64,000 nt of DNA from Chitinophagales bacterium (GTDB taxonomy: Bacteria; Bacteroidota; Bacteroidia; Chitinophagales; JADIYW01). Within the stretch, counting starts at the first letter, position 1; each line of letters begins with the position of its first letter. The position numbers were made by a program, and so were the translations under genes. Location of the stretch: positions 12,764 through 76,763 of the forward strand of contig CBDCGV010000017.1 in the NCBI GenBank assembly GCA_965216955.1, read 5' to 3'. Positions 8,065 through 52,124 of the stretch are shown here, one piece after another. The notes under the pieces were generated by a model, which saw nothing but the letters and a program-made list of their open reading frames with translations, was not told the DNA's origin and did not search any database.

Positions 8065-9519
8065 TTGGCAAGAAGAGTTCCTTTTTTTACAGACATCCAT
8101 TTACATGTAACCTTAAAATCTTCTAATTCAGGTCATCCTAAGCCAATGTATAATATTTGGGAGGACTTTGATCATTTAATTCCTCAATATAGAACAGCAA
8201 GATATGTATCAAGAAACTCTCTAGAAATAGCAAAGTACACACAAGCTAATTTATATAAACTAGCAAAAGGTAAAGTTCGAGTATTTTTTAACTCTCTATA
8301 CCCAATAGAAAGAGGCTTTATAAATTTAAGAAATATCCCCAAAGCACTGACAAGAAACAAAGTACAACATGAATTAATCGGACTTCTTACAGGTATGTCT
8401 GCTGATAGAGTTGCACACCTCAAAAAAAATACTGATTATTTCAAAGAGGTTCATGAAGAGTATGAATATTTTAAAAGTCAACAAGGCCTTTCTCCTGATA
8501 AGCAACATCGATTTGAGATTGCAAAGAATTTTAACCATTTAAAAGAAATTTTAAAAGACAAAACAGCATTATCATCTATCGTTACTATTGAAGGTGCTCA
8601 TGTTTTTTTAGATAAAAAAATGTTATCTGGGAAACTGACTAGAGGAGAAATGAAAGTTGCCGTAAAAAATAACATTGAATCCATTAAACAATGGGAACAC
8701 CCTCCTTTTATTGTTAATGTAGCTCATCATTTTTATCATGGATTTTGTGGACATGCTAAAAGCTTTTTTAAAATAGAAATTGCCGAAGGGCTACTGAATC
8801 AAAAAAGAGGATTAGATTTAGGGATTAATGGGCTTGGCACAAAAATTATGACTGAGATGCTAAGCAATAGCAACGGGAAACGTATTCATATAGATACAAA
8901 ACATATGAGCTTAAAAGCTCGAAAAGAATATTATAAATGGTTACGAGGATACAATTACATTAATAAAAATAACAACATCCCAATTATCTGTAGCCATACA
9001 GGTGCAAGTGGTTATAAAACCATGAAAGGGAACATGCTCACAAAAGACAATACCTCAAAAAAGAATGAAGGGTACTTGTTTAGATGGACTATAAACATTT
9101 CTGATGAAGAGATTCGATTAATTCACGAAAGCAAGGGACTAATCGGAATTATGGTTGATAAAACAAAATTGGGAGGTGGTAAGTTTTACGCAGCATTATC
9201 CAAAGCAAAAGATGATGTTGCTATAAAAGATTTATTTATGAAAATTTTGTGGGATAATATATTTCAAATAATACACGCCATAGGCGATAAATCAGCATGG
9301 GATATTATTACTATTGGCTCAGATTATGATGGTGCTATACAGCACATCGATTATTACGATTCTGCGGATAAAATGCCTGATCTTTTTGACGACATGAGAG
9401 ATTTTATTGAAAAGAATAACTACCAAAAAGACTTATGGTTTGATTATGAGCCTGTGGAGATTTTAAATAAAATCTTTCAGAAAAATACAATGGATTTTTG
9501 CGAACGGTACTTTGTATAA
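8065..9519 (+). CDS. amidohydrolase-fold protein distantly resembling membrane dipeptidase (peptidase M19 family)
   Basis: 484 aa with a TTG start. Motifs seen by eye: DIHLH near the N-terminus, IEGAH, HIDTKH, CSHTG, IGSDYDG. Assignment is tentative. Confidence 0.4.
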   Translation: MARRVPFFTDIHLHVTLKSSNSGHPKPMYNIWEDFDHLIPQYRTARYVSRNSLEIAKYTQANLYKLAKGKVRVFFNSLYPIERGFINLRNIPKALTRNKVQHELIGLLTGMSADRVAHLKKNTDYFKEVHEEYEYFKSQQGLSPDKQHRFEIAKNFNHLKEILKDKTALSSIVTIEGAHVFLDKKMLSGKLTRGEMKVAVKNNIESIKQWEHPPFIVNVAHHFYHGFCGHAKSFFKIEIAEGLLNQKRGLDLGINGLGTKIMTEMLSNSNGKRIHIDTKHMSLKARKEYYKWLRGYNYINKNNNIPIICSHTGASGYKTMKGNMLTKDNTSKKNEGYLFRWTINISDEEIRLIHESKGLIGIMVDKTKLGGGKFYAALSKAKDDVAIKDLFMKILWDNIFQIIHAIGDKSAWDIITIGSDYDGAIQHIDYYDSADKMPDLFDDMRDFIEKNNYQKDLWFDYEPVEILNKIFQKNTMDFCERYFV

Positions 9520-9775: not shown

Positions 9776-10501
9776 CTATCCTTTTGAATAACCGTTTTTC
9801 TGTAGTTCTTTAACTTCTTTTTTAATATGAAGCCCACATTCCGTTTTTGTAGAATTATTCCACCTTCCAGATCGATTTTGACCTTTTAAAGTACAGTGTG
9901 TACAACCTACGGAACCATAACCAAGTTTTTGCAAAGGATGTCTCGGTAAATTGTGTTCTTCAAAATAATCGCGAACAAAAGATGGTGCAACATCTATTAA
10001 AGGATAAAATTTTAGAACGTCATCCACTTTTTCAAAGACGTCGAGGTTTTGTCTAAAAGGAGTTGAATACGCTAATAGACCAGAAACCCACACTTTATAA
10101 TTAGCCCGAACAGCATCTAAGGGTTCAACCTTATTTACCGAACAACATAGATCTTGGTCTTTTTCCCAAGTTTTATCTTTATTAGTGAAATCATTTTTCC
10201 ATTGTTCAGGAGTTAAAGTAACAACATCGAAGCCAAATCTTTCACTCAGTTCGTTTTTATAATTATGTGTTTCCTTAAAAAGATACGTCGTGTCAATAAA
10301 ATGAATTTTTTGTTTCTTATTTACATTACTTATTAAGTGTAACATAACCGCTGAAGAAGTTCCAAAAGAAGAAGTAATAAGGACATCGTCCTCATAGAAA
10401 TCCTTATAGAATTGTACGATTCTTTCTTGAGGAGATAAAGGATTGTACTTTTCTACCAAGTATTTTACATTCATAATATTTTCCCCTTTTACATGCTTCA
10501 T
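9776..10501 (-). CDS. cysH: adenylyl-sulfate / phosphoadenylyl-sulfate reductase (thioredoxin-dependent)
   Basis: 241 aa PAPS-reductase fold (ITSSFGTSSAVMLHL). It carries the CC...CxxC pattern (DLCCSVNK, GCTHCT) typical of Fe-S APS-type enzymes. Last gene of the sulfite reductase operon. Confidence 0.85.
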   Translation of the reverse strand: MKHVKGENIMNVKYLVEKYNPLSPQERIVQFYKDFYEDDVLITSSFGTSSAVMLHLISNVNKKQKIHFIDTTYLFKETHNYKNELSERFGFDVVTLTPEQWKNDFTNKDKTWEKDQDLCCSVNKVEPLDAVRANYKVWVSGLLAYSTPFRQNLDVFEKVDDVLKFYPLIDVAPSFVRDYFEEHNLPRHPLQKLGYGSVGCTHCTLKGQNRSGRWNNSTKTECGLHIKKEVKELQKNGYSKG

Positions 10502-10504
10502 CTG

Positions 10505-11089
10505 TTAATTCTTCCCAACAAGTACAGAAGTAATTTCATTCAATTGATCTACTTTATTTTTAAAGTCCCCTTTTAAACTATTTCTGATCGTTCTTAAATT
10601 TTTTAGAATCTCCGGAATCGACTCAGGTAATGAATCTTCCAAAAGCATCCTAAATCGCTTGGCAAATGTTGGAGATTTTCCATTCGTAGAAATAGCAATT
10701 TTTAAATCTCCTTTGGTAACTATAGAGCCTAAATAAAAATCACATAATTCAGGTGTGTCTGCAACATTTACAAGCAAGCCCTTTTTTTTAGAACTTACTC
10801 TTATAAATTCATTAATTGTTTTGTTATTAGTTGCTACAATTACAATATCTATTTCTTCTAAATCCTTTTCATCGAATTTCTTTTTATGAATTTCAATCGT
10901 ATTATATGACTTATTTGAACTTATCCTTTCTGAAACTTCTTCCGCTACAAGTTTTACTTGGGCAAAAGGACTACTTTTTAAAAGAAAGTGTAGTTTTTCA
11001 TCAGCAACAACTCCTCCTCCAACAATTAAAAATCTTAACTGCTCTGTTTTTAGGAAAACTGGAAATAAGTTATTACGAGAAATCTCCAT
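10505..11089 (-). CDS. precorrin-2 dehydrogenase / sirohydrochlorin ferrochelatase (siroheme synthase N-terminal-domain type)
   Basis: 194 aa with Rossmann motif FLIVGGGVVADEKL, as in CysG-N/SirC/Met8. Overlaps cobA by 17 nt. Confidence 0.75.
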   Translation of the reverse strand: MEISRNNLFPVFLKTEQLRFLIVGGGVVADEKLHFLLKSSPFAQVKLVAEEVSERISSNKSYNTIEIHKKKFDEKDLEEIDIVIVATNNKTINEFIRVSSKKKGLLVNVADTPELCDFYLGSIVTKGDLKIAISTNGKSPTFAKRFRMLLEDSLPESIPEILKNLRTIRNSLKGDFKNKVDQLNEITSVLVGKN

Positions 11090-11846
11090 TTAAATAATTT
11101 TCTTCGATGTAAACCCAATTAATTTCAGGATGCTCATTAACAACGTTCCCAATAATTATAATGGCAGGGGTTCCTATTTTTTGGAGTTTCACTTCTTCTA
11201 AAATACTGTCTACTGTCCCCAATGCTTTCTTTTCTGAGGAAAGACTTCCATTTTGGATAACTGCAATTGGCGATTCAGATTTACCCTCTGCTTTTAAAAG
11301 CTCAACAATCAAAGACAATTTTCCTAACCCCATTAAAATCACTAGTGTCGCACTACTTTTGACAGCCAAAGCCAAGTCTTCTGCAAATCGGCCTTTTTTA
11401 GCCGTTGCCGTTAACACCCAAAAACTTTCATTTACTCCTCTTTTAGTAAGCGGAATTCCTTGCAACGCAGGAACAGCAATTGCACTTGAAATGCCAGGAA
11501 CAATTTCTACCGCAACATTAAATGCCTTGGCATATTCCAATTCTTCATGCCCCCTGCCAAAAACAAATGGATCTCCCCCTTTTAAACGAACTACATGTCC
11601 ATAATTAAATGCATAGGCCACTAGCATCTCATTGATTTTATCTTGAGTATACCTATGCTTATTTGCGCGCTTACCCACAAAAACAACAAGCGCATCCTTA
11701 GCTGCATTTTCCAAAAGCACTTTATTGACCAGTGCATCGTATAAAATAACATCAGCTGTTTTAATCGCTTTTAAACCTTTGATACTAATTAGATCAGGAT
11801 CTCCCGGACCCGCTCCTACTAATGTTATTTTAGGTGTTTTATTCAT
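11073..11846 (-). CDS. cobA: uroporphyrinogen-III C-methyltransferase
   Basis: 257 aa; LVGAGPGDPDLISIKGLKAIKTADVILYD is typical of SUMT. Its ATG directly abuts the upstream stop (TAGATG). Confidence 0.85.
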   Translation of the reverse strand: MNKTPKITLVGAGPGDPDLISIKGLKAIKTADVILYDALVNKVLLENAAKDALVVFVGKRANKHRYTQDKINEMLVAYAFNYGHVVRLKGGDPFVFGRGHEELEYAKAFNVAVEIVPGISSAIAVPALQGIPLTKRGVNESFWVLTATAKKGRFAEDLALAVKSSATLVILMGLGKLSLIVELLKAEGKSESPIAVIQNGSLSSEKKALGTVDSILEEVKLQKIGTPAIIIIGNVVNEHPEINWVYIEENYLNGDFS

Positions 11847-13988
11847 CTACGCTTTGTAATAATTTTCGATCACTTCTTTATCCTTTTCGCTTCCTTCTTC
11901 ATTTCTCTGGCGTTCTCTATAAGCCTTTATCTCATTTAAAAAATGACTCAATTGGTTTAAATAACCCTCCACAAATGATTGACTTGGTTCATTCGCCTTA
12001 ATGCTCAACACTAATTCTCCAAAGTCTTTTCCTTGTGCTGAGAAACTACCTTGATCTGCAAGATGTTCATTAAAATCTTTAATGATATTGATTTGGGTAT
12101 TGCAAGCAATATCTTTAGATAAAAGTAACGCCTTCGCTCCAATTACAAATCCTGTATAAGCACTGTAAGCAGCCTGCGGATAAAGTTTTTCTTTTTTGTA
12201 TGCTTCTGCTTCTTCTTGTTTAATTTCTGCATCTCTTATGATGCCCCCCACTAAGTCTGTCATTACACCTGCACATTCTCCTACCCCTATCTCTGGAACA
12301 AAGTTTTCCGTATGTCCCCAATCTTGGAATTCTTCTGGCCTAAAGGTTTCTTTATCGCCTAATTCCTTTAGAATTCCATAAAAATACCTCTTCCCTTGTC
12401 TCCTAAAGTAGCTATTAAAGTACTCTCCTTCAGTACCATTATCTTCATAATCTTGAAGGATTGTTCTCAGTACATCAGGGATCCTCTTAGTAGGTAATTT
12501 GATAACCTTTTCTCCTATATTTCCTGCACCATCTGGATCCACACCTCCACCAAGTATTACTTGCATAGCAGGAGCCACTAAATCTCCTACCTTTATAGAG
12601 CTGCCATGAAATCCTATTTGGGCAGCCATATGTTGCCCGCAAGAGTTCATGCAACCACTCATCTTTATTTTAATATTTTTCTCATGTGCCAAATCCTCAT
12701 ATTCTTTCTTTAATACATCCTCAAGCACTTTTGCAAGCTCCATACTATTTGTTACTCCCAACATACAAGTGTCTGTTCCTGGACACGTTGTTATATCCAA
12801 AATTGTATCAAACCCAGGATTTGCGAAATTCAATTCATCTAGTTTTTGATATAGATAAGGCAAGGCCTCTTCTCTAACAAAACGCAATAAAAGTCCTTGG
12901 TTAACAGTTACACGCATGTCATCAGCAGCAACTTCTTCAACTATTGCGGCCAGTTTACGAGCAATTTTATGGTCGATATCCCCCTTTAATACTTTGAGAT
13001 AAACTCCGAAAAAGCCCTTTTGCTTCTGCTCAAAAACATTCGTTGCTAACCAATCTTTATATTTCTTCTGGTCTTCAATATTTATACTCGGTAAATCTTT
13101 AGTTGCTTTTGGCACTGCAGAAGGAAAATCATCTGTTTCAATAGCGACAGTCTGATTCGCTAAAGATTGTAATTCTTCTTTTACCAATTCCATCCAAGCT
13201 TCTAATCCCATTTCTCTTACTAGAAACTTCATTCTAGCCTTAAACCTTTTCGCTCTTTCGCCATATCTATCAAAGACCCTTATGGCTGCCTCCATAAATG
13301 GAAGAATTTTCTCTTCTTCAAGAAACTCATATGCTGTCGGGGCAATAATAGACTGTGCTCCTAACCCACCACCAACTAGAACTTTAAAGCCCCTTTTACC
13401 ATCTCTAACTCTTGGTATAAAACCAAAATCATGGAAATAGGCAAACGCTGTATCTTGCTCATTTGAAGAGAACGCAATTTTTATTTTCCTTCCCATATCC
13501 TGGCAAATAGGATTTCTCAAGAAATACTCAAACGTCGCATGAGCGTATGGCGTTATATCAAAGGGTTCTTCTGGATCAATTCCTGCAGTAGCAGAAGCGG
13601 TAACATTACGAACCGTATTACCGCAAGCCTCTCTTGCTGTTACTTGAACGTCTGCTAATTCTGTCCAAACTTTTGGTGAATCATCCAATTTCACATAATG
13701 AAGTTGAATGTTTTGTCTCGTTGTAAGATGTAAATTACCTGTAGCATATTTTTCGGATACATCAGCCAATCGAACCAATTGTTTTGGTGTTATTTTTCCA
13801 TAAGGAAGTTTTGTCCTAAACATTTGAACTCCAAATTGTCTCTGTCCATATACTCCCCTTGTAAGCCTATAAGCCTTAAACTTATCCTCTGGCATCTTTT
13901 CATCCTTAAACAACTGAATCTTATACTCTAATTCGCGAATATCTTCCGCAGCCTTTTTAGATACATTATTACTAATTTCAACTCCCAT
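11847..13988 (-). CDS. sir: assimilatory sulfite reductase hemoprotein (ferredoxin-NiR/SiR type) with a C-terminal helical extension of about 150 aa
   Basis: 713 aa. Duplicated NiR/SiR ferredoxin-like and 4Fe-4S/siroheme modules (TTCPGTDTC, SGCMNSCGQH). First gene of an operon with siroheme synthesis genes and cysH. Confidence 0.85.
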   Translation of the reverse strand: MGVEISNNVSKKAAEDIRELEYKIQLFKDEKMPEDKFKAYRLTRGVYGQRQFGVQMFRTKLPYGKITPKQLVRLADVSEKYATGNLHLTTRQNIQLHYVKLDDSPKVWTELADVQVTAREACGNTVRNVTASATAGIDPEEPFDITPYAHATFEYFLRNPICQDMGRKIKIAFSSNEQDTAFAYFHDFGFIPRVRDGKRGFKVLVGGGLGAQSIIAPTAYEFLEEEKILPFMEAAIRVFDRYGERAKRFKARMKFLVREMGLEAWMELVKEELQSLANQTVAIETDDFPSAVPKATKDLPSINIEDQKKYKDWLATNVFEQKQKGFFGVYLKVLKGDIDHKIARKLAAIVEEVAADDMRVTVNQGLLLRFVREEALPYLYQKLDELNFANPGFDTILDITTCPGTDTCMLGVTNSMELAKVLEDVLKKEYEDLAHEKNIKIKMSGCMNSCGQHMAAQIGFHGSSIKVGDLVAPAMQVILGGGVDPDGAGNIGEKVIKLPTKRIPDVLRTILQDYEDNGTEGEYFNSYFRRQGKRYFYGILKELGDKETFRPEEFQDWGHTENFVPEIGVGECAGVMTDLVGGIIRDAEIKQEEAEAYKKEKLYPQAAYSAYTGFVIGAKALLLSKDIACNTQINIIKDFNEHLADQGSFSAQGKDFGELVLSIKANEPSQSFVEGYLNQLSHFLNEIKAYRERQRNEEGSEKDKEVIENYYKA

Positions 13989-14067
13989 ATTTACTATAGT
14001 TTCGAATTATTAATCAATACTTTTGTTCAAAAAAAATGGTCAAAAGTCTATTTTTTGTCGCCTTATT

Positions 14068-14103
14068 AAAAAAGCCTTCCCACTAATACGCTTTGGAAAG
14101 GCT
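14068..14103 (-). terminator. intrinsic terminator between the Cys-rich leader ORF and the sulfite reductase gene (candidate attenuator; could also serve as the oxyR terminator)
   Basis: Minus-strand RNA AGCCUUUCC-(13 nt loop)-GGGAAGGCU forms a 9-bp stem with one G-U pair, followed immediately by UUUUUU. Confidence 0.65.
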
Positions 14104-14133
14104 CTACTAATATGCTATTATAAAATCAAATAC

Positions 14134-14196
14134 CTATCCAGCAATTGTTGTAAAACAACAACAGCAACAAGTAGTTATTTGATATTTTTCTCCCAT
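14134..14196 (-). CDS. candidate leader peptide MGEKYQITTCCCCCFTTIAG (five consecutive Cys codons)
   Basis: Read directly: ATG GGA GAA AAA TAT CAA ATA ACT ACT TGT TGC TGT TGT TGT TTT ACA ACA ATT GCT GGA TAG. It lies 30 nt upstream of the terminator hairpin and 145 nt upstream of the sulfite reductase ATG. It is below the ORF-track length cut-off. Confidence 0.45.
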   Translation of the reverse strand: MGEKYQITTCCCCCFTTIAG

Positions 14197-14306
14197 TTCT
14201 ATTATAAAACTAACTTGTTATTAGAATAATTCCAAATAAGCCTTATTTTTTTTGTTGGATTAATGTTTTTTTAATCAGGTTCTGAAGAACCATAGAAAAG
14301 TATAGT

Positions 14307-15245
14307 TTATTTCCATTGAACAATTGTCCCTCTTTTTTTATTAGATAATTCTTCTGGAATATTCGATAATATATAGGACTTTAGGTGATCAATAAGGGAT
14401 ATTTTGGCCATATTTCTATAATAAACCAAACTAATTTCTCTTAAGGGCTTTGGACTAATAAACCCTTTTACTTGTTTTAGTTTTCTTGTCGACAGCTCTA
14501 AAACTGCTAATTCCGGCAAAAGAGTAGCCCCACCTTCTATTTCTACCATTTTCTTTAACGTTTCTATCGATCCGCTTTCATATCTTAAATTTCTTCCTTC
14601 TTCGTTTAAATCTAAGTGGCAAAGATTTATTACATGGTCTCTAAAACAATTACCCTGAGAAAGCATCCACAATTCTTTTTTATTAATACGTGTTGGATCA
14701 ATTCTTTTTCGTTCTGTTAAAGGATGCTTTGGGTGTACGTACAACATTATTTCTTCATAAAAAATAGGGTCTTCTTTCAACTCATCCTCTAAAAGAGGTG
14801 TCGCTACAATTCCAACGTCCAAAGCATCTTTTTTTAAAAGACCAATAATGTCTTCGGTCATCAATTCTCTTATACTCAATTGAACTTTAGGGTTTTTCTT
14901 AATTAAATCTCCAAGAAAATAGGGCAATAAATAGGGCGCTAAAGTCGGAATTATTCCAATTTTCAAATGACCTTGTATATTTTGTTTATGATCTGAAATT
15001 ATTTGCCCAATTTTACCCGATTCTCTTAATACATTTCGTGCTTGTTCTATAATTAGTTTTCCAATGGCAGTGGGAATAACTGGCTGTTTTGTTCTATCAA
15101 AAATGGATACTTTTAATGCTTCTTCTACCTTTTTTATTTGCATACTTAATGTTGGTTGGGTTACCATACATTTTTCAGCTGCAGTTGCAAAATGCCTATA
15201 AGTATCAATGGCTACAATGTACTCAAGTTGAGTTAGAGAAATCAT
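14307..15245 (-). CDS. oxyR: LysR-family peroxide-sensing regulator OxyR
   Basis: 312 aa with an N-terminal LysR HTH. The redox pair is spaced as in OxyR (GNCFRDHVINLC, C-x8-C). Divergent from ahpC. Confidence 0.8.
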   Translation of the reverse strand: MISLTQLEYIVAIDTYRHFATAAEKCMVTQPTLSMQIKKVEEALKVSIFDRTKQPVIPTAIGKLIIEQARNVLRESGKIGQIISDHKQNIQGHLKIGIIPTLAPYLLPYFLGDLIKKNPKVQLSIRELMTEDIIGLLKKDALDVGIVATPLLEDELKEDPIFYEEIMLYVHPKHPLTERKRIDPTRINKKELWMLSQGNCFRDHVINLCHLDLNEEGRNLRYESGSIETLKKMVEIEGGATLLPELAVLELSTRKLKQVKGFISPKPLREISLVYYRNMAKISLIDHLKSYILSNIPEELSNKKRGTIVQWK

Positions 15246-50330: not shown

Positions 50331-52124
50331 ATGATGATTTCGATAAAACAGCAAGTAAGTAATCTACCACAGAAACCAGGGATATACAAATACTATGGCG
50401 CTGAAGAAAAAATCTTGTATATCGGAAAAGCAAAAAATCTTAAAAAGAGAGTGGCTTCCTACTTTACTGAAAAACGTTCTACCAGTGCACGATTAAAACT
50501 CTTAGTTAAGAAGATTGAAAAAATTGAATACACTATAGTTGATTCTGAGAAAGATGCTTTGTTGTTAGAAAACTCTTTAATAAAACAACACCAACCTAAA
50601 TACAATATCCAATTAAAAGACGATAAATCTTTCCCTTACATAGTTATACTGAATGAAGCATTCCCGAGAATTTTTCTAACCAGAAGAATTAAAGATGACG
50701 GATCATATTATTTTGGCCCTTACACCTCTGTAAAACGGGTACGTAGCATTTTGAACCTCATAAAAAAGATTTACCCTATTAGAAGTTGCTCCTTAAACCT
50801 TGCCGAGAAACACCTCAAAAAGGAGAAATATAAAGTATGTCTTGAATATCACATTGGAAATTGTTTAGGACCTTGTGAATTGAAGCAAAATGTAAACGAT
50901 TATAATAACAATATTGCCCAGATAAAGGAAATCTTAAAAGGGAAAGTTACTGTCGTAAAAAAAGAATTAAGGAGACAACTTGAAGAACAAGTAGAACGTT
51001 TGGAATTTGAGAAAGCTGATTTCACGAAAAAGAAATTAGATTCATTAAGCGAATATATTGCAAGTTCTACAGTTGTAAATCCAAATCTAGGAAATCTACA
51101 TGTATTTGGATATACAGAAAATAAGAATAAATCTTATATAAGTTACTTGCGTATTGTAGATGGAACGATTATCAAAACAAACGGTTTAGTGGTAACAGCA
51201 AAACTTGAAGAAACTAAAGAAGAAATGTTGTTGTATGCAGTAAGTCATTTTGTGGATGATATAGATGATACTAAACTTTGCATTGTTCCCTTCGAACTAA
51301 ATTCCGAATTGACCAACAACTATATAAATTATGCTGTTCCAAAAATTGGCGATAAAAAGAAACTACTCGATTTAGCACTAAGCAATGCTATGCAATTAAG
51401 GAATAAACATACTTCATATAAACTAGGTAACAATAAAGAAAGGTTGTTACAACAAATAAAAGAGGATTTACAACTAAAACAATTACCCTTCCATATAGAG
51501 TGTTTTGACAATTCAAATATGCAAGGAAGTAACCCTGTTGCCTCAATGGTCGTTTTTAAAAATGGAAAACCTTCAAACAAAGATTACAGACATTATCACA
51601 TTAAAACAGTCATTGGCCCTGATGATTTTGCCTCTATGAAAGAAGTTGTTTATAGAAGATACCGAACATTAAAAGAGGAAAAACAAACCTTTCCACAGCT
51701 AATCGTGATTGATGGTGGGAAAGGGCAATTAAATGCTGCTTATGAAGCGCTCCAAGAATTAAAACTCCATAAAGAAATCCAATTAATCTCGATTGCGAAA
51801 AGACTTGAGGAATTATATTTTCCAGGAGATAAATACCCTATACATTTAAGCAAAAAATCTGAAACTCTAAGAGTTTTGCAACAACTAAGAAATGAAGCTC
51901 ATAGATTTGCTATCACTTTTCATAGAAATCTTCGATCAAAAAATACCTTTAAAACAGAGTTGACTGATATACCCGGTATTGGAAAGGTATTAGCTGAAAA
52001 ACTACTTATACATTTCAAATCTGTTAAAGGTGTAATTAGCGCAAACCCTAATGAACTAATAGCAGTACTTGGAAATAAAAAGGCACAACAGTTACTGCAC
52101 TATTTTGAGGGAGAAAAAAAATAG
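50331..52124 (+). CDS. uvrC: excinuclease ABC subunit C
   Basis: 597 aa with the GIY-YIG N-terminus (GIYKYYGAEEKILYIGKAKNLKKR), a UVR domain, and a C-terminal HhH. Confidence 0.92.
   Translation: MMISIKQQVSNLPQKPGIYKYYGAEEKILYIGKAKNLKKRVASYFTEKRSTSARLKLLVKKIEKIEYTIVDSEKDALLLENSLIKQHQPKYNIQLKDDKSFPYIVILNEAFPRIFLTRRIKDDGSYYFGPYTSVKRVRSILNLIKKIYPIRSCSLNLAEKHLKKEKYKVCLEYHIGNCLGPCELKQNVNDYNNNIAQIKEILKGKVTVVKKELRRQLEEQVERLEFEKADFTKKKLDSLSEYIASSTVVNPNLGNLHVFGYTENKNKSYISYLRIVDGTIIKTNGLVVTAKLEETKEEMLLYAVSHFVDDIDDTKLCIVPFELNSELTNNYINYAVPKIGDKKKLLDLALSNAMQLRNKHTSYKLGNNKERLLQQIKEDLQLKQLPFHIECFDNSNMQGSNPVASMVVFKNGKPSNKDYRHYHIKTVIGPDDFASMKEVVYRRYRTLKEEKQTFPQLIVIDGGKGQLNAAYEALQELKLHKEIQLISIAKRLEELYFPGDKYPIHLSKKSETLRVLQQLRNEAHRFAITFHRNLRSKNTFKTELTDIPGIGKVLAEKLLIHFKSVKGVISANPNELIAVLGNKKAQQLLHYFEGEKK

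Follow-up and report, generated by a model that had tools for sequence, protein, structure and literature searches.

A candidate cysteine-codon leader-peptide attenuator upstream of a sulfite reductase-siroheme operon in a Chitinophagales bacterium, and related leaders in other Bacteroidota

Cysteine is, to our knowledge, a conspicuous gap among the amino acids under classical, terminator-based leader-peptide attenuation, and the only Cys leader open reading frames (ORFs) that we know to have been studied experimentally are mycobacterial and act on translation. We likewise know of no regulator of sulfur assimilation in Bacteroidota. Here, we analyzed a short leader ORF with five consecutive Cys codons, and the terminator that follows it, upstream of a sulfate-reduction and siroheme operon (sir-cobA-cysG(N)-cysH). 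Both lie in a 64,000-nucleotide (nt) stretch of DNA from a Chitinophagales bacterium (contig CBDCGV010000017.1), and this whole stretch is called the window below. On support that is computational throughout, we consider it probable (roughly 85%) that this element is a ribosome-mediated transcription attenuator that senses charged tRNA-Cys and controls the operon.

In mycobacteria, leaderless short ORFs encoding polycysteine tracts have been shown experimentally to confer cysteine-responsive translational attenuation (Canestrari et al. 2020, bioRxiv 10.1101/834739, Mol Microbiol 114:93). There, ribosome transit controls the response, base pairing joins the Cys tract to the Shine-Dalgarno region of the gene that follows, and no termination of transcription was seen with a reporter; the authors stated that attenuation by an upstream ORF (uORF) had previously been undescribed for cysteine (bioRxiv 10.1101/834739). 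Upstream of cysS in Rhodobacterales, uORFC-8-2 is a predicted attenuator with two Cys codons followed by a terminator stem and U-run (Brewer et al. 2021, PMC8632094). Candidate leaders of Actinobacterial cys and cbs genes carry Cys runs near the stop codon without terminator hairpins, and Rho dependence has been proposed for them (Seliverstov et al. 2005, PMC1262725). For Flavobacterium psychrophilum and Bacteroides thetaiotaomicron, published transcriptome studies refer to short ORFs resembling leader peptides in general terms only. In a literature search that covered subscription journals thinly, no account of a Cys leader ahead of Bacteroidota sulfate-assimilation genes came to light, and an earlier one is possible (e.g., in Russian-language comparative genomics).

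In the window, the element occupies the 318-bp gap between a LysR/OxyR-like gene (14307-15245) and sir (11847-13988), both on the minus strand. Its parts, and the operon that it is predicted to regulate, are as follows.

14134..14196, minus strand: leader ORF of 20 codons plus stop (MGEKYQITTCCCCCFTTIAG, then the stop), with ATG at 14196 and TAG at 14136-14134
14155..14169, minus strand: five consecutive Cys codons (UGU UGC UGU UGU UGU), the proposed stall (sensing) site
14125..14183, minus strand: 1:2 hairpin of region 1 (14183-14156, Cys codons) and region 2 (14151-14125, leader stop), −17.1 kcal/mol, also present in the minimum-free-energy fold
14094..14140, minus strand: putative antiterminator (2:3 pairing) of strand 14140-14127 (UGGAUAGGUAUU), spanning the UAG, with 14109-14094 (UAGUAGAGCCUUUCCA)
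14068..14104, minus strand: intrinsic terminator (3:4 pairing), with 5′ arm 14104-14094, 3′ arm 14082-14072, and U6 at 14073-14068
9776..13988, minus strand: predicted regulated operon sir-cobA-cysG(N)-cysH, from NCBIfam matches and ORFs

The coordinates that the initial annotation had given for the leader ORF, Cys run, gap, and hairpin all held on the minus strand. The leader run is the sole instance of four or more consecutive TGY codons on either strand of the window. Further (TGY)3 runs at 51226-51234 and 2053-2061 were considered as extra leaders and rejected as chance matches inside long ORFs.

The terminator hairpin (AGCCTTTCC, a loop of 11 to 14 nt, and GGGAAGGCT, followed by T6) starts 30 nt past the leader stop, has an energy of −11.6 kcal/mol (core stem) to −14.8 kcal/mol, and lies, with its U6 tract, 85 nt from the sir start. 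A generic terminator scan with a loop limit of 8 nt did not report this hairpin, because its loop is too long; terminators were scored instead with a custom hairpin-plus-T-tract finder. Two alternative pairings that had been noticed by eye were both recovered by folding, namely, a Cys-codon hairpin within the 14183-14125 stem-loop and a duplex of UGGAUAGGU with the terminator 5′ arm (−10.2 kcal/mol versus −4.9 for shuffles; p = 0.025). Region 3, UAGUAGAGCCUUUCCA, extends from the terminator 5′ arm into the bases just ahead of it, and its pairing with strand 14140-14127 has an energy of −9.4 to −10.5 kcal/mol. The nascent transcript was then folded up to the terminator loop under three states, with the ribosome on the Cys codons, on the stop codon, or absent. 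With a footprint over any Cys codon, the 2:3 antiterminator was the minimum-free-energy structure of the nascent RNA (−8.5 to −10.5 kcal/mol). With the ribosome on the leader stop, the antiterminator strand was covered and the antiterminator did not form, and with no ribosome the strand was locked in the 1:2 hairpin; in both of these states, the terminator 5′ arm stayed available. In this comparison of constrained and free folding of the leader RNA, which the initial annotation had put forward as a check, the antiterminator won in nascent RNA only with the ribosome on a Cys codon.

We propose that transcription would start upstream of the 20-codon leader ORF. When Cys-tRNA is plentiful, the ribosome would reach the UAG at 14136-14134 and cover UGGAUAGGUAUU, whereupon the terminator (14104-14072 plus U6) would form and RNA polymerase would stop at about 14068. 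When Cys-tRNA is scarce, the ribosome would stall on the Cys codons (14169-14155) and break the 1:2 hairpin; the freed UGGAUAGGUAUU would pair with the emerging terminator 5′ arm, blocking the terminator and permitting read-through into the operon, with UGGAUAGG and CCUUUCCA as the partner segments of the proposed pairing. If the leader were not translated, the 1:2 hairpin would hold the antiterminator strand and termination would be the default. Translation of the leader, the position of the promoter, and the response to cysteine are what we infer in this scheme.

The arrangement recurs upstream of related operons. The comparison set comprised 80 loci with Sir orthologues (52 to 62% identity, one genome per species) from Chitinophagales, Saprospiraceae, and several Cytophagales families, and the sense strand up to 700 nt upstream of sir was searched for ATG-initiated short ORFs with at least three consecutive Cys codons. 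At least 41/80 loci carried such an ORF (42 if the window is counted), with runs of 3 to 11 Cys codons and a total of 58 leader ORFs, the window's included. Looser forms in seven more loci (five Cys-rich without a run of three, two with non-ATG starts) bring the count to about 50 loci. Runs of at least five TGY codons occurred at 0.86/kb upstream of sir versus 0.0044/kb elsewhere (both strands, 1.6 Mb of related loci), an enrichment of about 200-fold; several of the few runs elsewhere are themselves leaders, before sulfhydrylase-like or cysH genes. An in-frame upstream ATG preceded any stop for 93% of runs in the Cys frame versus 6% and 16% in the alternative frames, which means that the Cys runs are read as codons. 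A median of 7 codons separated the run from the leader stop, and a hairpin (−9.7 to −30 kcal/mol) with T5-8 started 21 to 60 nt past the stop in 47/58 leader ORFs. Beyond the Cys run, the leader peptides (~15 to ~65 residues) share no sequence. No Cys leader was detected upstream of sir in the Spirosoma, Fibrella, Larkinella, Runella, Roseivirga, and Cytophaga loci examined.

The closest relatives retrieved, L081 and L082 (68% Sir identity), both carry a Cys leader. In L082, the synteny is ahpC-(dps)-oxyR-sir, as in the window, and positions 2181-2471 contain two units in tandem, MKSLNHIICCCFCCCKKPN and MNLLKTICCCCCRKFAEKENYT, each followed by a terminator of its own; L081 has a single unit (...STACCCCCQLTNVG) with an exact TACTTTTG box ahead of the leader. 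Lack of conservation upstream of orthologous operons had been named as a result that would refute the attenuator; instead, the Cys-run ORF with its terminator was found in dozens of species, with cultivable carriers in Haliscomenobacter, Marinoscillum, and Pontibacter. The relatives had been expected among Flavobacteriia; instead, the nearest ones found are Chitinophagales/Saprospiraceae-like and not demonstrably Flavobacteriia.

Antiterminator pairing was scored across the family in the 47 terminator-bearing units, by matching the spacer (the stretch between the Cys run and the terminator) against the terminator 5′ arm and comparing it with shuffled spacers. The best duplex had a mean z of −1.9 relative to shuffles (p ≤ 0.05 in 45% of units), and its usual location was between −28 and +20 nt relative to the leader stop codon, where it would be covered by a terminating ribosome and not by a Cys-stalled one. 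Terminator sequences vary by lineage (e.g., GCCTTTCC, GCCTATCT, CCCTTCTTCAC, GCCCTGCCGG, and GCCCCGG), and a unit's own spacer outperformed the spacers of other loci for its own arm (mean rank, 0.27 to 0.30; Wilcoxon p = 3 to 5 × 10−5, per unit and per locus). At the level of sequence, this own-versus-other preference is between-lineage covariation of the predicted antiterminator and terminator. In nascent folds, placing the ribosome on the last Cys codon left 75% of 5′-arm bases sequestered, compared to 50% for a ribosome at the leader stop and 52% when the spacer was shuffled (p of about 3 × 10−6 for each versus the stalled state).

One alignable subfamily (alignment A2: L001, L002, L007, L010, and L024; leader type MKLxVSLxxCCCxCPQ) has a conserved 21-bp 1:2 hairpin and a terminator with compensatory AU-to-GC changes. 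Its 7-bp 2:3 helix was 94% paired in the correct register versus 26 to 57% in shifted registers, and the sequence of its region 1, AGCCTATCT, nearly repeats that of the terminator 5′ arm. The V-S-L codons (GTCAGCCTATCT) in these leaders are a near-exact copy of the 5′ arm GCCTATCT; therefore, regions 1 and 2 mimic regions 3 and 4, respectively. The recurrence of the unit, its terminators, the antiterminator strand at the stop codon in the window, and the analogous strands across the family together support the attenuation logic put forward in the initial annotation.

A candidate promoter of the Bacteroidota type lies ahead of the leader.

14205..14236, minus strand: candidate promoter, TTTG at 14236-14233, a 20-nt spacer, and TAGTTTTA at 14212-14205

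TAGTTTTA matches 7/8 positions of TAnnTTTG, which we take, from the Bacteroides promoter literature, to be the Bacteroidota −7 consensus, and 8 nt separate it from the leader ATG, so that use of this promoter would imply a very short 5′ untranslated region (UTR). The TTTG at 14236-14233 is contained in CTTATTTG, which had already been pointed out. Across the family, exact TAnnTTTG boxes had a density of 1.17/kb over the 200 nt that precede the first Cys run versus a background of 0.45/kb, a modest 2.6-fold enrichment, and in 34 loci the gap from the proximal terminator to sir contained no exact −7 box; this gap is at most 60 nt in 14 of them. Judged from these motifs, the balance favors a promoter upstream of the leader ORF, for which this genome has the candidate described above.

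Several observations weigh against the attenuator. The window's upstream promoter box is only a 7/8 match, and an earlier caveat had called this promoter weak by eye. The same caveat held that a better box lies downstream of the terminator; that box, GACTTTTG (14048-14041), proved equally imperfect and has no TTTG at −33, and a second, unattenuated promoter may nevertheless be present there. At equilibrium, the full-length leader kept the terminator in every state under ribosome masks, a result that does not discriminate between the states. Because the terminator is always the equilibrium structure once its 3′ arm has been made, the switch must be kinetic, i.e., co-transcriptional; the Escherichia coli trp attenuator likewise relies on co-transcriptional kinetics. 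Across the family, the 5′ arm was still paired in the ribosome-free state in 22/47 units, and the antiterminator was weak or absent in about one-third of units (e.g., L051, L058, L060 unit 1, L031 unit 2, and L082 unit 1). The 2:3 helix of the alignable subfamily, a small and conserved set, showed no compensatory change, and the covariation support therefore comes only from the comparison between subfamilies. Finally, the loci are phylogenetically related, which makes the p-values optimistic.

Of the other explanations considered, the one that survives best accepts that Cys-tRNA is sensed by stalling and places the output elsewhere than in terminator read-through, i.e., in Rho-dependent polarity, mRNA stability, or translational coupling. 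The Pontibacter loci L049, L059, L064, and L076 are one basis for it: no canonical hairpin plus T-tract was found within 120 nt of their leaders, the same holds for a few other loci, and leaders of the Pontibacter type may have a different output, e.g., Rho-dependent or translational control. The weak antiterminator in about one-third of units points the same way, as does the translational action of the studied mycobacterial precedent (bioRxiv 10.1101/834739). However, 47/58 units, including that of the window, have a strong hairpin and U-tract at a constrained distance from the stop, and sequestration of the terminator arm depends significantly on the ribosome state. Sequestration of a Shine-Dalgarno sequence is also an unlikely output in Bacteroidota, which generally lack Shine-Dalgarno-dependent initiation. 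We therefore regard an output of another kind as improbable for the window. The Pontibacter leaders, located 290 to 420 nt upstream of sir, encode 35 to 39 residues and end in CCCCC(C)SC directly before the stop.

Very improbable, in our estimate, is that the short ORF is a separate gene for a functional Cys-rich micropeptide (e.g., metal binding or redox active) with no regulatory effect on the operon. Its position is conserved, Cys-rich peptides can be functional, and oxyR and ahpC are neighbors in the window. Yet across leaders of ~15 to 65 residues and 3 to 11 Cys codons, no peptide sequence is held in common except the Cys run, and what is conserved instead is the RNA logic, namely, the stop-to-terminator distance and the complementarity of the antiterminator. 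In addition, the gene that directly follows a unit, in the same direction, is always one of sulfur assimilation (e.g., sir, cysH, or a metZ/metY-like gene).

The initial annotation had itself cautioned that the hairpin could be the terminator of the upstream oxyR-like gene, with the (TGT)n run and short ORF arising by chance. This gene runs in the same direction as the leader, with its end 203 nt before the hairpin, and a generic scan (loops of ≤8 nt) found no other canonical terminator for it. Across the family, however, the nearest upstream gene is divergent in 15 loci, the ORF-plus-terminator unit also recurs behind different upstream genes, and 13 loci carry two complete leader-plus-terminator units in series (300 to 600 nt upstream of sir). 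The divergent upstream genes and tandem units therefore exclude an upstream terminator plus chance repeat for the family, and the roughly 200-fold enrichment and frame specificity of the Cys runs argue in the same direction. The hairpin may also end oxyR transcripts, yet the Cys ORF would stay unexplained, and for the window we give this account next to no credence. Equally little can be said for an untranslated (UGY)n motif bound by a protein or small RNA: repeated UGU could form a binding platform and the leader start lacks a Shine-Dalgarno sequence, but the in-frame ATG is specific to the Cys frame (93% versus 6% and 16%), the stop consistently falls a few codons past the run and adjoins the antiterminator strand, and UGU and UGC interchange inside runs as codons would.

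The operon and its neighbor on the leader side contain the following genes.

14307-15245, minus strand: LysR-family gene, with OxyR as the closest similarity, below the curated cut-off
11847-13988, minus strand: sir, ferredoxin-type sulfite-reductase-like gene, 713 amino acids (aa), NirA/Sir-like
11073-11846, minus strand: uroporphyrinogen-III C-methyltransferase gene
10505-11089, minus strand: gene for a precorrin-2 dehydrogenase of the siroheme-synthase N-terminal type
9776-10501, minus strand: cysH, phosphoadenylyl-sulfate reductase gene

The same gene order of the operon is present in the relatives L081 and L082. The 713-aa Sir-like protein scored below every NCBIfam curated cut-off (best match, NirA family, 239 bits versus a cut-off of 523) and appears to belong to a Bacteroidota-specific subfamily of ~705 to 725 aa. 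Both its Cys leader and its linkage to cysH speak for this predicted enzyme being a sulfite reductase. The LysR/OxyR-like gene is divergently paired with a gene for an AhpC-like peroxiredoxin (NCBIfam). Directly 3′ of its stop are two small hairpins, at 14278-14291 and 14255-14275 (both minus strand; GGTTCTTCAGAACC and TGATTAAAAAAACATTAATC), neither with a U-tract. Shortly past the end of the operon lies an oppositely oriented ORF of 484 aa (8065-9519, plus strand), which had no NCBIfam match at E ≤ 0.001.

Cys-run ORFs with 4 to 8 Cys codons were also observed before O-succinyl/O-acetylhomoserine-sulfhydrylase-like genes and cysH, co-oriented upstream of sir. These, together with the loci carrying tandem units, are listed here.

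Two complete units in series upstream of sir: L008, L015, L016, L025, L029, L031, L039, L045, L051, L053, L054, L058, L060
Cys-run ORFs before sulfhydrylase-like genes: L020:2972-2992, L023:3253-3276, L034:1040-1051, L038:3116-3136, L069:3540-3551, L080:3167-3184
Cys-run ORFs before cysH: L063:1723-1743, L077:3984-4001

The leaders before sulfhydrylase-like genes and cysH thereby mark a wider sulfur-assimilation regulon in Cytophagales. Tandem units might give a sharper response. By their sequence features, the Cys leaders are apparently a sizeable new family of a well-known mechanism, with novelty in the amino acid, operon, and phylum. On balance, we lean toward a broader proposal, namely, that assimilatory sulfate reduction in Chitinophagales, Saprospirales, and Cytophagales is controlled in cis mainly by Cys-tRNA leader attenuators, an undescribed RNA family whose members are often in tandem to sharpen the response, have been recruited before cysH and homocysteine/cysteine-synthase-like genes, and constitute the first classical terminator/antiterminator attenuator for cysteine. 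For many environmental Bacteroidota, the leader is thus a candidate regulator of sulfate assimilation. It also independently assigns the poorly classified 713-aa NirA/Sir-like enzyme to cysteine and sulfur assimilation rather than nitrite reduction. Tandem units would be unusual natural examples of serial leader-peptide attenuators and could serve for the study of ultrasensitive control or provide cysteine-responsive parts for the engineering of Bacteroidota.

When the window was searched against Rfam at E ≤ 10, the best and sole cis-regulatory match was Phe_leader (19.7 bits, E = 4.5, gathering score of 55). This sub-threshold, chance-level match spans 14066-14187 on the minus strand, nearly from leader to terminator, and reflects generic attenuator architecture. 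At gathering thresholds, 10 family loci gave zero matches (no leader, SAM riboswitch, or T-box family). The suggestion that the element may be undescribed thus agrees with both Rfam, in which it matched no family, and the literature searched, in which no Cys leader of Bacteroidota was found. The S-box (SAM) riboswitches and T-boxes of Firmicutes also act by conditional read-through of an intrinsic terminator before sulfur-amino-acid genes; their sensor, however, is an RNA that binds a metabolite or tRNA, whereas here it would be the translating ribosome.

Among the Cys-codon leaders, those of the Actinobacterial cys and cbs genes are similar in being Cys-run short ORFs upstream of cys operons and differ in that terminators are the rule in the family described here. 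uORFC-8-2 is, like the window's element, a predicted ribosome-mediated attenuator with Cys codons in a uORF followed by a terminator; in contrast, it has only two Cys codons, controls cysteinyl-tRNA synthetase rather than biosynthesis, belongs to Alphaproteobacteria, and does not match the window sequence. The mycobacterial short ORFs share the consecutive Cys codons ahead of cysteine- and sulfur-metabolism genes and perhaps an almost absent 5′ UTR, if the window's leader is transcribed as we infer. They are unrelated in phylum, without homology, and unlike them the present family conserves a canonical terminator and antiterminator. In the mycobacterial type, the Cys tract pairs with the ribosome-binding site and there is no terminator, whereas the window's Cys tract pairs with region 2 and a U6 terminator intervenes.

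The closest likeness is to the trp, his, leu, thr, ilv, and pheA attenuators of Proteobacteria (the Yanofsky model), which have the same 1:2 pairing, 2:3 antiterminator, and 3:4 terminator with U-tract, the same placement of the stop within or adjoining region 2, and the same default of termination, with read-through when the ribosome stalls, as is proposed for the window. The window holds clustered cognate codons in a short leader ORF, an intrinsic terminator between that ORF and the first structural gene, and, computationally, a mutually exclusive antiterminator gated by the ribosome, the last being weak in about one-third of family units. The ordering of energies in the trp attenuator resembles that in the window, where 1:2 is −17, 2:3 about −10, and 3:4 about −15 kcal/mol. 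The present element differs from these classical attenuators in that it would sense cysteine and target a sulfate-reduction and siroheme operon; it shares no sequence homology with them, and its relatives often carry two tandem units. Its host, moreover, is a member of the Bacteroidota, with another type of promoter and without Shine-Dalgarno-led initiation.

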